This document shows, in pieces, positions 13,155 through 16,787 of a stretch of 64,000 nt of DNA. This DNA is from Deltaproteobacteria bacterium (GTDB lineage Bacteria > Desulfobacterota > Desulfomonilia > UBA1062). The stretch's first letter is position 1; every line of letters begins with the position of its first letter. Both the position numbers and the translations under genes were made by a program. Where the stretch lies: contig JAHDOV010000003.1 of assembly GCA_018434685.1 (NCBI GenBank), positions 28,302 to 92,301 of the forward strand, read 5' to 3'. The notes below the pieces were generated by a model. That model had not been told where the DNA came from. It saw only the letters and a list, made by a program, of their open reading frames with translations, and did not search any database.

Positions 13155-13281
13155 AAAGGCGATACTGCGGGTCGTCATCGCCACCGGAAGAGCCTTCATC
13201 GTCCCCCGGCCTTATACGATCCGTGAGCCTTGGGATCTTCATAGCCGGCTCATCTATGGGGTTCTATGCCATGACATAGTT

Positions 13282-13469
13282 ATGTTACTTTCTTTGCTTG
13301 CACAAGAGAAAGTAACCAAAGAAATGCACCCCACGAAGCCGCCCTTTCGGGTGCGTTCGCTCACTCGGGAAAAATCCGTTCGCAATTAAACTCGCTCCAT
13401 TTCATTCCGCTCAGACAAAATTGCTCATTTTCCGGATTTTTCCCTCCCTCGCTCACCGGCTTCGAGGGG
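13282..13469 (+). repeat. Left terminal inverted repeat (~190 bp, hairpin-rich) of cassette
   Basis: It begins ATGTTACTTTCTTT...AGAAAGTAAC (a 10-bp-stem terminal hairpin). It contains GGGAAAAATCCG-N55-CGGATTTTTCCC and ends at ...CGGCTTCGAGGGG. The reverse-complement copy at 16300-16491 is ~80% identical. Confidence 0.85.
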
Positions 13470-13637
13470 ACCCATCCCGGGTGCTGAACCGCGACTCAAC
13501 AGGAAAATATTGGAATCTGCGTGCTCTTTGCCATAAAGAAGACAACCAACCTCTTATCAACGAACTGCACATATCCATTGGAGATCTTCAAAATAATCCG
13601 TCTTGGGAAATTGAATAGTTATCGCAGTTATATTTAC

Positions 13638-14405
13638 TTAGAAGTTTGAGATGCAAGAGGAGCGCATGGACATGACACATAGTTTTTCTCGCTTAGGGTA
13701 AGGTTGATTGTGAGCTAACATTAATTTTCTATATTTCTTTACCGTTCTAGGCGTAGCGGCAATCATTATGTATCTGTGTTTTGGGGTTAAAGGTATAAAT
13801 TTTAACTTTGGGTCATATTCACGGAGCTTTGATAAATCCCTTGTTCCAAATTTTTTCCTAACTTTCCATCCGGACATTTTCTTCCCAAGAATATAATAAT
13901 TACCCTGTCCTTTGGGATCCGTAAGACCAGTATAAATAGCATTTGATGCCTGATAAATAGTGCCAATCTCATAAAATTGAGTATCAGCATAAGCGATAAT
14001 TATTGATGATCCTAACTTATTATACATTGCCCTATTGGCTCGAGCAATTAAATGAGTTGCAGTGCATATAGGAGCATTGAAAGAACAGCCACCACGACAA
14101 AGTTGGATTATGTTACATCTGAGTTCCTTGGCTAACTGACTTATCCATCCACGATTTTTAGAAAAACATGTTGTTCCATATGAAACTACACCAAGTAATT
14201 TATCATTATGTTTCAATCCCCAATGCCATACCCCTAAACCGACATCCCCTAAATGCTCATATATCCCCATGAATTCTTGAGCCTGATTTCTGGGAATATT
14301 AACAAGAGTAGTATGACTAAGCTCAGATGAAGATAACATTATATATCTTATGTAATTTTTGGTTCTTTTCCTAGAATTAAGCATCCCAATAAAACTGTAG
14401 CCCAT
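13638..14405 (-). CDS. Hypothetical protein (255 aa; unknown function; cassette cargo gene 2)
   Basis: Long ORF in AT-rich DNA, 3' to and overlapping (or abutting, if the start is the internal Met at 14339) the 344-aa ORF. Basic C-terminus. No motif I can assign; weak Rx5H near the C-terminus. Confidence 0.5.
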   Translation of the reverse strand: MGYSFIGMLNSRKRTKNYIRYIMLSSSELSHTTLVNIPRNQAQEFMGIYEHLGDVGLGVWHWGLKHNDKLLGVVSYGTTCFSKNRGWISQLAKELRCNIIQLCRGGCSFNAPICTATHLIARANRAMYNKLGSSIIIAYADTQFYEIGTIYQASNAIYTGLTDPKGQGNYYILGKKMSGWKVRKKFGTRDLSKLREYDPKLKFIPLTPKHRYIMIAATPRTVKKYRKLMLAHNQPYPKREKLCVMSMRSSCISNF

Positions 14406-15382
14406 TTTAACAGTTCAAATAGTGATGACAATGGAAAGCTTGCTAAATCTTGCAATACAATTAAGACGGCAAGGATGAGTGCTATTATAAAAGTTTTAGA
14501 AATTAACATTTGAGATGATATTTTCAATGGATATTCCAATGAATATAGTATGTTACTCTCTTGATATACAAATACTTCGATAAAAGACCGTATATCCGAT
14601 ATCTTAAATGAGCTTTTGGGCGTAAATAAATTTTTAACGCTGTTTGTTTTAGCACCCAATACTATTCTTCCTGAGCTATGGGGAAATAACGGATTGTTAA
14701 ACTTGATTAAAATTGATTTATCAACACTGCCTTTATCAGGGTCATAATATGTAATATTAAAATCATATGTATTATCAGATTCTAAAGTAATAACATTTGA
14801 TTGCACTGGTAATAGTTCTTTCCCCTTAATTGTTTCATCTTTTAAGGATATTTTCAGTAGCGGCAAATGATCTTCTGATAATTTCTTTGTCTTTGATAAA
14901 TTTTCTACAACTATAAACCAATAACTACTGTCGAAAGATAGCTCATCGGAATATTCTTTGCCTACTTGCATATAATAACCATCGTTAATGTTACAAGGAT
15001 CTTGCCCTACTAGCTCTGGTATGCCTTTAACCGATTTCTTAAGTTGATAAGTGAACTCCTCATAATTTTCAGTCTGGCAATAATCTCCAAATGAGCATTC
15101 TACATGTAGGCGATTAGCGTTAACTTCAGAGCTTAAAACTTTTGCTTTTCTGATGGGGTAATATTTATAAGAGCCTTCATTGAATCTATCTACATAAATT
15201 ATTAAACAATCCATTCCTGATAAATCTTTTCCAACCAATTCAGAGGGGACATTTTGACCTATAGTGTAGCGAAACGTTGTAGTATAATAATTTGGAAAAG
15301 ATAATATTTTAGAAATATTATTCTTGTAAAGAGGTCTTAAAGCTGAATTAAAAACATACAGTATTTCGTTCTCCATAACCAC
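14348..15382 (-). CDS. Hypothetical protein with ~270-aa soluble N-terminal domain and two C-terminal TM helices (cassette cargo gene 1)
   Basis: 344-aa ORF with an AT-rich promoter region upstream (15383-15720). The C-terminal hydrophobic segments are FIIALILAVLIVL and WATVLLGCLILG. No recognisable catalytic motif. Confidence 0.55.
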   Translation of the reverse strand: MVMENEILYVFNSALRPLYKNNISKILSFPNYYTTTFRYTIGQNVPSELVGKDLSGMDCLIIYVDRFNEGSYKYYPIRKAKVLSSEVNANRLHVECSFGDYCQTENYEEFTYQLKKSVKGIPELVGQDPCNINDGYYMQVGKEYSDELSFDSSYWFIVVENLSKTKKLSEDHLPLLKISLKDETIKGKELLPVQSNVITLESDNTYDFNITYYDPDKGSVDKSILIKFNNPLFPHSSGRIVLGAKTNSVKNLFTPKSSFKISDIRSFIEVFVYQESNILYSLEYPLKISSQMLISKTFIIALILAVLIVLQDLASFPLSSLFELLKWATVLLGCLILGKEPKIT

Positions 15383-15723
15383 CTACAAAAAATGATTTCA
15401 TTAGAAATATAATTTTATGATATTAATTGTATAACAATAATTTGAAATGATATCTATAATTATTGAATATCTAGTGAAATATCACTCTCTTTATGATTTA
15501 ATGCTTATTCCAAGTCTATCAAAATGATAGAGCACGTGCCATACTGTGTAATCAGATTTTGATTGAGATTTTGGATACATATCACAAGGAAATCTTTCAC
15601 CCATAATATGAGTCCTTTTGATCCTATCTCCATTTCGTTCCGACTTTACTCAATTGCTCTTGATTTGGTGATACATCAGATTAAATAATGAATAATGTAA
15701 TCCGATTTTTAAGGTGAAAAAAC

Positions 15724-16113
15724 ATGAAAGAGATCGAAATAGAACTAGTTATATTTCTATTAATTATTTTATGTTCATGCACAACAATTAAAACATCACA
15801 AGAAATAATACCAAAAAACAATTTAATATATTCTGCACCATACGATAAAGTGTATAACTGCTCAATTAATGCCCTCATGGCTCTTGGATGGCAAATAACG
15901 CATTCAAATAAGGATGAGGGCTTGATCCAAGCTAAGGCACCTATGTCCTTGTGGACTTGGGGAGATCTAATTACAGTACATATTATTAAGGAATTCCCTG
16001 ATAAGGTAAGAGTAGATGTGACATCAGGCTCACCACAACAGTTTGACTGGGGTAAAAACAAGAAGAATATAGAAGCATTTTACGAAGAGTTAAAAAAGCA
16101 ATTAGAAGATTAA
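15724..16113 (+). CDS. Small secreted/lipoprotein-like hypothetical protein (cassette cargo gene 3)
   Basis: N-terminal hydrophobic helix ending ...LIILCSC (a lipobox-like Cys), then a 105-aa hydrophilic domain. Divergent from the two-gene operon. Confidence 0.45.
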   Translation: MKEIEIELVIFLLIILCSCTTIKTSQEIIPKNNLIYSAPYDKVYNCSINALMALGWQITHSNKDEGLIQAKAPMSLWTWGDLITVHIIKEFPDKVRVDVTSGSPQQFDWGKNKKNIEAFYEELKKQLED

Positions 16114-16299
16114 ATATATAATTAGCCAGCCCTAAGTGCAGTTAAAGGACCGCTTAATCAGTTGTCCGATACAACAACTACATATAACGTGCCATTATCG
16201 GGATTCGCCTGATAGTGAACATAATTTTGATATGTGACATCTTCCTCTGGTTCAAAAGTGTGTGATCGTACTGGAATAACTCGGCACCAGTCCCAATCC

Positions 16300-16491
16300 C
16301 CCCTTGAAGCCGGCGAGGGAGTGCAGGAAAAATCCGAAAAACGAGCACTTTTGTCTGAGCGCAGCACAGCTGCGCGAGTTTAAGTGCGAGCGGATTTTTC
16401 CTGTGCGAGTGAGCGTACCTGCCAAAGGCAGGCGGCTTCGCGGGGTGCATTTCTTTGGTTACTTTCTTTATGCAAGTAAAGAAAGTAACAT
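16300..16491 (-). repeat. Right terminal inverted repeat (~190 bp) of cassette
   Basis: Its reverse complement aligns with 13282-13469, with the same order of hairpins and compensatory substitutions in the stems (CAGGAAAAATCCG...CGGATTTTTCCTG versus GGGAAAAATCCG...CGGATTTTTCCC). Confidence 0.85.
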
Positions 16492-16787
16492 AAGAATATT
16501 GAATTTAATCCATCTTGCAATAAATCCAGGTCGGACCAGAATAGCATCCGTCGATAATCTCCCGCCGTGCAGTGACACAGGCTGGCGGAGTCGATCGTCC
16601 TGAACTCCGGGCTTTTCCTGAGGTTTAGGCTCTCCGGGCGTGTCTGGGCGAAAGGTGGTGGCGGAGACTGTTTCTGCCCTGATAACGGTGTGGTATAGAG
16701 CAATTCAGCGTGCCTCAACAGGTTTTGCGGTGTTGATGCAACCGCCGGTTCTATGGTAACGGATCTCTCACACTAGGAGGGAAAACA

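Follow-up and report, generated by a model that had tools for sequence, protein, structure and literature searches.

We analyzed a 64-kb stretch of DNA (the window, whose numbering is used throughout) from a deltaproteobacterial contig, JAHDOV010000003.1, in which two minus-strand genes, here gene 1 (geneA) and gene 2 (geneB), lie on a low-GC insert of ~2.8 kb. Gene 2 encodes a Mom-family enzyme, and gene 1 encodes a protein of an unannotated family with a predicted membrane anchor, homologs of which directly adjoin this clade of Mom in ~9 phyla. An earlier note on the window, made by eye, had singled out the pair as a candidate for an undescribed system. The features of the pair are given below, with residue numbers referring to proteins of 342 amino acids (aa) for gene 1 and 233 aa for gene 2.

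14348 to 15376, minus strand: gene 1, 342 aa plus stop, with an alternative GTG start at 15382; uncharacterized family
14837 to 15376, minus strand: predicted PUA-like barrel (alpha/beta), gene 1 residues 1 to ~180, from the AlphaFold2 model
14516 to 14809, minus strand: predicted immunoglobulin-like (Ig-like) beta-sandwich, gene 1 residues ~190 to 287, from the AlphaFold2 model
14375 to 14512, minus strand: predicted two-helix transmembrane hairpin, gene 1 residues 289 to 334, from the model, hydropathy, and family conservation
14340 to 14347, minus strand: 8-nt junction between the gene 1 stop and the gene 2 ATG
13638 to 14339, minus strand: gene 2, 233 aa plus stop; Mom-family enzyme with the GNAT fold
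15377 to 15723: AT-rich region (21 to 33% GC, by composition) between gene 1 and a divergent open reading frame (ORF) that begins at 15724

Both ORFs described in the earlier note were present on the minus strand where it had placed them, at 14348 to 15382 (344 aa, from a GTG) and at 13638 to 14405 (255 aa, from the first ATG), as were the gene 1 stop (TAA, 14350 to 14348) and the candidate gene 2 ATGs at 14405, 14384, and 14339. The most likely start of gene 1 is the ATG at 15376 (342 aa), which is favored by the N termini of homologs (MExxxLYLFNS), by database entry P0001, and by an AGGTGG Shine-Dalgarno-like sequence just upstream. For gene 2, the ATG at 14339 (233 aa), 8 nt past the gene 1 stop, is most likely the start because the closest homologs begin at the aligned position (P0004: MLSSSIIRSSS...); either of the ATGs farther upstream (14384 and 14405) is a less likely start. 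In the NCBI annotation, the gene 2 protein (P0003) has 210 aa and begins at an internal Met (MGIYEHLGD...), and the Logan call has 233 aa. Since the homolog N termini and the Logan call both favor the ATG at 14339, the public annotation is probably 23 codons too short. No obvious Shine-Dalgarno sequence was found in the 8-nt junction, and coupled translation of the two genes is therefore likely. Junctions at homologous loci are comparably tight, with overlaps or gaps of −1 to 16 nt, and the two-gene, operon-like unit proposed in the earlier note is borne out. Neither ORF is due to chance, since each has many homologs (182 cluster representatives for gene 1 and 177 proteins for gene 2). The promoter or promoters of the pair presumably lie in the AT-rich region at 15377 to 15723, which contains consensus-type sigma-70 matches.

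Judged by its sequence, gene 2 is clearly a Mom-family enzyme with the GNAT fold. It matched the Pfam family PF25680 (Mom) at 60.4 bits (cutoff, 27.1 bits; E = 2.5e-16) over profile positions 6 to 202 of 202 and matched PHROG 1384, “Mom-like DNA modification protein,” at 1.5e-24, while a profile of its clade matched the phage Mu Mom structure, PDB 8bv8, at an E value of 1.3e-6 (HMMER). A total of 177 homologous proteins were detected with 42 to 69% identity to gene 2, and PF25680 was carried by all 120 of the 120 homologs among the matches listed. Identity was 25 to 32% to phage Mom-like proteins and ~21% to Mu Mom. The earlier note had found gene 2 unassignable to GNAT or several other families; this statement is overturned by the PF25680 score above the curated cutoff and by the 8bv8 profile match, because Mom has the GNAT fold.

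In the Mu Mom reaction, Gly-tRNA(Gly) donates glycine to the N6 position of adenine in double-stranded DNA (dsDNA), and the adduct then rearranges to N6-carbamoylmethyl-adenine (ncm6A) (PMC13219725, 2026). Residues R111, S124, and R151 are essential in Mu Mom, and H58, Y59, D149, Y159, W48, W181, and a helix-turn-helix (HTH)-like insertion are important (PMC13219725). We mapped Mu residues onto gene 2 by two alignments that agreed, a MAFFT alignment with Mu Mom and a HMMER alignment of the clade profile to 8bv8. Mu R111 corresponds to gene 2 R82 and Mu Y159 to Y129, both invariant in the clade; Mu S124 corresponds to T95, a position occupied by Ser in >90% of the clade, and Mu D149 corresponds to D118. 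The clade also keeps the Mu insertion region, which is implicated in DNA binding, and a basic C-terminal PYPKR motif. Overexpressed Mom is lethal in Escherichia coli (PMC7261163); for a resident copy, a need for a partner or for tight control is therefore plausible.

Gene 1 matched no Pfam, NCBIfam, PADLOC, or PHROG family, and 42 members of its family gave isolated marginal matches at most, two of them to PADLOC. An exhaustive search of 1.84 billion cluster representatives recovered 182 representatives of the family at E ≤ 1e-3, of which 86 reached E ≤ 1e-10; almost all were 340 to 400 aa long. A word-indexed homolog search returned gene 1 itself and one relative when gene 1 was the query and three when an alignment was used. 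Longer relatives (400 to 508 aa) contained no additional Pfam domain. The AlphaFold2 model of gene 1, built from a 91-sequence alignment, had a predicted local distance difference test (pLDDT) score of 93.4 and a predicted template modeling (pTM) score of 0.89. In this model, the PUA-like barrel is followed by the Ig-like sandwich and by two C-terminal helices, at residues 289 to 311 and 316 to 334, after which comes a basic tail (GKEPKIT; family consensus, GKK). A hydropathy scan found at least two C-terminal hydrophobic segments in 72 of 89 full-length family members. The C-terminal double transmembrane anchor described in the earlier note is thus upheld by the model helices and the hydropathy scan. 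The N-terminal part, in which the earlier note saw no recognizable motif, is not featureless, as the model resolves it into a probable PUA-like fold and an Ig-like domain. The short uncharged loop and the basic flanks of the hairpin suggest an N-in/C-in orientation, which would place the soluble part of the protein in the cytoplasm.

We assign the N-terminal domain of the gene 1 model, with moderate confidence, to the PUA-like barrels, and it is most like those of the EVE/YTH type. The likeness to EVE, YTH, and ASCH domains is one of fold and not of sequence. Profiles of these three domains matched none of 35 N-terminal domain sequences of the family at E ≤ 1, and the family profile matched nothing among PDB sequences at E ≤ 10. 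Foldseek gave no significant match of gene 1 to the PDB; its best weak matches were the N-terminal domain of Lon and the Lon-like domain of cereblon, both likewise PUA-like in fold, and the EVE protein PH1033 appeared at rank 48. Family alignments showed a strongly conserved N-terminal half and a variable middle. R76 is invariant across the family, and F9, N10, S11, Y17, N20, P28, G30, R36, Y37, D63, R64, Y70, P74, D132, G133, Y135, W153, and F173 are at least 90% conserved. Nearly all invariant residues sit in the barrel, where the conserved aromatic and polar residues are F9, N10, S11, Y17, N20, Y37, Y70, Y135, and W153. Domains of the EVE, YTH, and McrB-N types hold flipped-out modified bases. 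The modeled fold of gene 1, the clustering of invariant aromatic and polar residues within its barrel, and its partner gene together suggest that the barrel may likewise bind modified bases.

The pairing of the two genes is conserved well beyond the window. We scanned one genome for each GTDB species using the Mom-clade alignment as the query, which gave 39 loci, and searched these loci with hidden Markov models of both families. Co-occurrence was strict among the best-matching of these: a gene 1 homolog directly adjoined Mom on the same strand in 19 of 19 (L012 to L030; ~9 phyla), and no gene 1 homolog lay beside any of the 20 weaker, more distant Mom loci (L031 to L050). The 19 loci had the order gene 1 then Mom in 14 cases and the reverse order in 5, all from Acidobacteriota, and the retention of adjacency despite a swapped gene order argues for a functional link. 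Taxa with the pair included Planctomycetota, Acidobacteriota, Nitrosovibrio, several families of Clostridia, Bacteroidota, Ignavibacteria, Zixibacteria, Dehalococcoidales, and one deltaproteobacterium. When loci were looked up from the Mom side, all three long contigs (L003, L006, and L010) had a same-strand protein of 349 to 382 aa without a Pfam match that abutted Mom and was homologous to gene 1; from the gene 1 side, both usable contigs (L051 and L052) had gene 1 followed by Mom. Among the best 80 of 231 viral Mom relatives in IMG/VR, gene 1 was present in the four contigs with a clade-level Mom (L053 to L055 and L056) and in none of the other 76. Contigs L053 to L055 represent one 71-kb element identical to the prophage at L021. 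No gene 1 homolog was found in 50,697 phage records. Pairing in other genomes, on which the earlier note had staked its proposal, is therefore seen at 19 of 19 best loci and at 6 more (L003, L006, L010, L051, L052, and L056), with intergenic gaps across these 25 loci of −1 to ~190 nt.

At almost every locus, neither gene is truncated. Mean identity was 25% among gene 1 homologs and 40% among their Mom partners, indicating that gene 1 evolves faster. No third gene was conserved within 4 kb on either side of the pair at 21 loci. One cluster common to four loci was considered as a third member and rejected, as it is a thioredoxin-reductase-like housekeeping gene whose presence is coincidental. 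Mom clades that lack gene 1 have other architectures, namely, Mom-N6_N4 DNA methylase fusions in Acidobacteria (L034 and L041), DUF7487-Mom fusions, and a tandem Mom. The loci with such architectures were L034 (7899 to 9872), L041 (7737 to 9749), L046 (1941 to 4955), L047 (6714 to 8720), and L038 (7872 to 9542). Kinship of the N-terminal parts of other Mom fusions (DUF7487-Mom in L047; L044) with the gene 1 N-terminal domain was also considered and rejected; the hhalign probability was 0.1, and they are unrelated.

At 19 of 21 loci, the pair was lower in GC content than its flanking DNA, a pattern that fits repeated horizontal transfer. Conflict or mobile genes were present in ~8 of ~21 inspected neighborhoods (raw count), as follows.

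L017: type I R subunit directly upstream of the pair
L020: ResIII helicase and N6_N4 methylase near the pair
L016: nSTAND NTPase near the pair
L013: reverse transcriptase near the pair
L003: N6_N4 methylase and PRTase-CE near the pair
L010: integrase and SWI2/SNF2 helicase near the pair
L006: ImmA/IrrE and HTH protein near the pair
L021, 5136 to 10016: Oscillospiraceae prophage with the pair as a moron between the terminase large subunit (TerL) and portal genes

For P0260 (JGI 3300050046), the most divergent gene 1 relative examined, a DruA (Druantia) gene and a DUF87 ATPase gene follow at a distance of ~0.8 kb, and the contig ends within the gene on its upstream side.

In the window, the pair has the character of foreign DNA. 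The low GC content remarked on in the earlier note was confirmed, at 27 to 39% between ~13500 and 16280, compared with ~58% in the rest of the window, and the two minus-strand ORFs occupy most of this low-GC stretch. The island is flanked by housekeeping genes, which encode an HslU-like protein, an OB-HD protein, AMMECR1, HtrA/DegP, and a D-Tyr-tRNA deacylase. No tRNA genes or Rfam families were found in or beside it. Three other features belong to or bracket the same cargo.

15724 to 16113, plus strand: lipoprotein-like ORF of 129 aa, in the same low-GC cargo and divergent from gene 1
13280 to 13469, plus strand: left arm of an imperfect inverted repeat of ~190 nt that brackets the cargo; RNA folding z-score, −3.7
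16300 to 16493, minus strand: right arm of the same imperfect repeat, ~190 nt; RNA folding z-score, −7.7

The 129-aa ORF has an N-terminal hydrophobic stretch with ...LIILCSC and also occurs on Logan contig L002; family profile searches with it gave only DUF1499 and BamC matches, which were below threshold. It is not kept beside the pair elsewhere and is therefore probably a passenger. Inverted repeats I1 to I3 were found around the cargo, and each arm is a copy of a structured element of ~200 nt (13280 to 13480, plus strand, and 16290 to 16493, minus strand). The head of this element is a 14-bp hairpin (GTTACTTTCTTTG...CAAAGAAAGTAAC), followed by CCAAAGAAATGCACCCC. An exact 26-mer from the head occurred once in each of 22 metagenome contigs (L133 to L154) with GC contents of 37% to 66%, where it always preceded divergent sequence that folds alike, with a closing CCCC/GGGG helix, a small hairpin, and a long hairpin whose sequence varies from contig to contig. 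When the flanking repeat was aligned with MAFFT and folded with RNAalifold, the head hairpin alone was recovered. The element had no Rfam match and no conserved neighboring gene, and it could be a miniature inverted-repeat transposable element (MITE)-like or repetitive extragenic palindromic (REP)-like element or an undescribed family of noncoding RNA. It was absent from other geneA-Mom loci and is thus local context and not a part of the module, although it may be the route by which this particular cassette was mobilized.

The reading that we prefer, which we regard as quite plausible if somewhat short of probable, is that the pair is a self-contained, horizontally mobile conflict module consisting of a writer and a membrane-anchored reader. 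Gene 2 would use a charged tRNA as the donor of an aminoacyl group (in Mu, the glycine of Gly-tRNA) and attach this group to adenine N6 in dsDNA; we infer DNA adenine as the substrate by analogy with Mu. Gene 1 would face the cytoplasm while held at the inner membrane by its C-terminal helical hairpin, and its PUA-like barrel would recognize the adenine adduct written by gene 2. Recognition would then lead to one of two outcomes at the membrane: the hairpin might bring about growth arrest or abortive infection, or an otherwise toxic writer might be sequestered and controlled. It is possible that gene 1 is a membrane-disrupting abortive-infection effector, as suggested in the earlier note. The pair would act against phages or other invading DNA rather than in housekeeping, and a role in defense is the one that we infer for it. 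Roles in conflict systems have been predicted for linkages of GNAT enzymes with PUA-like (EVE/ASCH) domains (PMC7641849), and predictions of “momylation systems” cover both bacteria and phages (PMC7824862). Immunity could also work by writing and then reading an alarm, which we consider rather unlikely in the following form: an N6-aminoacyl or N6-carbamoylmethyl adenine adduct, made by an aminoacyl-tRNA-dependent GNAT only during infection on invading DNA or on a nucleotide, would be read by the PUA-like receptor, which would oligomerize through its Ig-like domain so that the hairpin depolarizes the membrane, with neither a nuclease nor a cyclic-nucleotide messenger involved.

Several observations weigh against the writer-reader module. 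If the writer were constitutive and the reader lethal, the pair would kill its own host, and no regulator was found. Mirror-tree coevolution of the two families was weak (r = 0.24, a value reached by 12 of 2,000 permutations). Conflict or mobile genes occurred in only about 8 of the ~21 neighborhoods, the rest being housekeeping, and the neighbors of the pair in the window are likewise housekeeping genes and no defense island. Neither window protein matched PADLOC-DB v2 at E ≤ 1. The two genes are also not invariably found intact together, since one contig (L001; JGI 3300035696, 1 to 1736) carries a gene 1 homolog (346 aa, 47% identical) without Mom, gene 1 in L009 is cut by an ISL3 element while Mom is intact, and Mom in L029 is truncated at its N terminus and lacks the first ~65 profile positions. 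Finally, the essential R151 of Mu aligns with gene 2 Q120, in a variable column, and is not conserved. Loss of this residue in the clade means that the substrate or the donor may differ from that of Mu; from the residues that are kept, gene 2 is probably active as an enzyme, with a donor, an acceptor, or a binding geometry that may differ from that of Mu.

Two of these exceptional loci have a distinctive local structure. In L001, gene 1 forms a low-GC insert of ~1.2 kb that appears to cut a high-GC nitroreductase-like ORF, and that is followed by a recC-like ORF; the locus may reflect an insertion of gene 1 by itself or a chimeric assembly. In L009 (651 to 1860), an ISL3-family transposase gene replaces the first ~200 codons of gene 1, and the downstream Mom is identical to those of the intact loci L006 to L008.

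Other explanations of the pair differ mainly in what gene 1 does for, or to, its enzyme partner. A DarTG-like toxin-antitoxin or addiction module, which we hold to be a lesser but real possibility, would have gene 2 as a toxin that modifies DNA or RNA bases and gene 1 as its antidote, acting by hydrolysis of the N6-acyl adduct or by sequestration of the enzyme at the membrane, with phage infection freeing the toxin. Some PUA-like ASCH proteins, such as YqfB, are indeed N-acyl-base amidohydrolases. It is fairly unlikely that gene 2 instead marks host DNA constitutively while gene 1, as the discriminating or effector component, acts on DNA or keeps it out according to how it is modified, at the membrane where foreign DNA enters, in a momylation system resembling restriction-modification (R-M). 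Predictions of such systems exist for both phages and bacteria and include fusions of Mom to restriction endonuclease (REase) domains (PMC7824862); other Mom clades are fused to N6_N4 DNA methylases (L034 and L041), which argues for a DNA target, and several loci with the pair adjoin R-M genes. However, no nuclease domain is present in gene 1, the base that PUA-like readers normally bind is the modified and not the unmodified one, and constitutive momylation is toxic in E. coli. The methylase fusions, found in sister clades, also bear on the idea that gene 1 is an accessory subunit whose PUA-like domain binds the acceptor end of aminoacyl-tRNA, in the manner of PUA domains in tRNA-modifying enzymes, or recruits the enzyme to the membrane, where the acceptor might be membrane bound, as for FemX and MprF, and not DNA. 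PUA-fold domains commonly bind RNA, gene 1 is membrane anchored, and R151 is lost in the clade, all of which would fit. So would the use of charged tRNA by Mom and the action of other GNAT-fold aminoacyl-tRNA transferases on membrane substrates (PMC13219725). Nevertheless, the clade keeps the PYPKR motif and the insertion implicated in Mu DNA binding, the closest structural matches of gene 1 are base readers and not tRNA-binding PUA domains, and the Mom-methylase fusions point to a DNA target, so that we judge this explanation unlikely.

It is still less likely that the pair is a counter-defense (anti-restriction) module of prophages or mobile elements, as in Mu, with gene 1 as a regulator or a superinfection-exclusion protein. 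Mu Mom does shield phage DNA from restriction, one prophage has a copy of the pair flanked by its terminase and portal genes (L021, equal to viral contigs L053 to L055), and another is on viral contig L056. Yet these are the only two distinct viral contigs with the pair among the best 80 of the 231 viral Mom relatives, none of the 50,697 phage records contains gene 1, and most loci are chromosomal with no phage genes nearby. The two genes could, finally, be unrelated neighbors that share one insertion, for which the solitary gene 1 of L001 might speak. Given that they adjoin each other in 19 of 19 best loci from ~9 phyla and in both orders, and that gene 1 is never beside the more distant Mom relatives examined, this is very improbable, and the co-occurrence data effectively exclude chance adjacency.

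As a possible writer-reader module, the pair shares elements with several known or predicted systems. With phage Mu Mom (a methylcarbamoylase; PDB 8bv8; PF25680), gene 2 shares the family, the GNAT fold, equivalents of R111, S124 (as Thr), D149, and Y159, the insertion, and the C-terminal PYPK motif. In contrast to Mu Mom, to which it is ~21% identical, gene 2 lacks R151, has no Com regulator, lies in a chromosomal or mobile island and not in a phage late operon, and has a partner gene, which phage Moms lack. The (PIN)-GNAT-EVE fusions with ASCH partners (PMC7641849), which are likewise uncharacterized, also link a GNAT acyltransferase to a PUA-like domain that binds modified bases and also occur in conflict and prophage contexts. 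Those, however, are fused soluble proteins with ASCH, PIN, or AAA_17 partners, whereas here there are two genes and the GNAT is of the Mom family; gene 1 adds an Ig-like domain and a membrane hairpin and is unmatched by EVE, YTH, and ASCH profiles. No ASCH, PIN, or AAA_17 gene was conserved near the pair in the inspected loci. Type IV restriction enzymes with EVE/YTH/SRA-type sensors (McrB N-domains, VcaM4I, and PD-T4-3) combine a reader with a nuclease or GTPase and encode no writer, whereas gene 1 has no nuclease and its writer is co-encoded. The predicted R-M-like momylation systems, which include the Mom-REase fusions of jumbo phages (PMC7824862) and the Mom-methylase fusions seen here, resemble the pair in having a Mom enzyme in a two-component, modification-based conflict system but differ in that the partner here is membrane anchored and not a nuclease.

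Two further comparisons concern architecture and logic. The architecture of the pair is like that of the ligand-gated transmembrane effectors of CBASS and Pycsar (for example, Cap15 and PycTM), in which a soluble ligand-binding barrel with two transmembrane helices is paired with a single enzyme gene. There is no homology between them (PADLOC was negative), the domain order of gene 1 is reversed, and its presumed ligand is a modified base and not a cyclic nucleotide. The logic of the pair is like that of DarTG, in which an enzyme that modifies DNA bases is accompanied by a partner that recognizes or removes the adduct and which serves both as a toxin-antitoxin pair and in antiphage defense. 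DarTG differs in its unrelated protein families, its ADP-ribosylation chemistry, and its lack of a membrane anchor. The suggestion in the earlier note that the pair is undescribed stands: we found no PADLOC match and no published account in searches for Mom with PUA-like, EVE, transmembrane, or defense, the coverage of which did not extend to Iyer et al. 2009 and 2013. What is new here is the protein family and the architecture of a proposed membrane-anchored reader, within the modification-based conflict modules of GNAT writers and PUA-like domains.

Mom has long been regarded as a one-off curiosity of phage Mu. Our results describe a distinct Mom clade in bacterial chromosomes, prophages, and small mobile islands of many phyla, coupled to one unannotated membrane protein with a predicted fold suggestive of modified-base recognition, and gene 1 constitutes a new family for annotation pipelines to model. 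If the writer-reader module is correct, it would extend DNA adenine hypermodification from phage counter-defense to a host-side or element-side conflict system, would give a function to the large uncharacterized gene 1 family, and would provide a tractable two-gene system in which to learn how cells read bulky adenine adducts.

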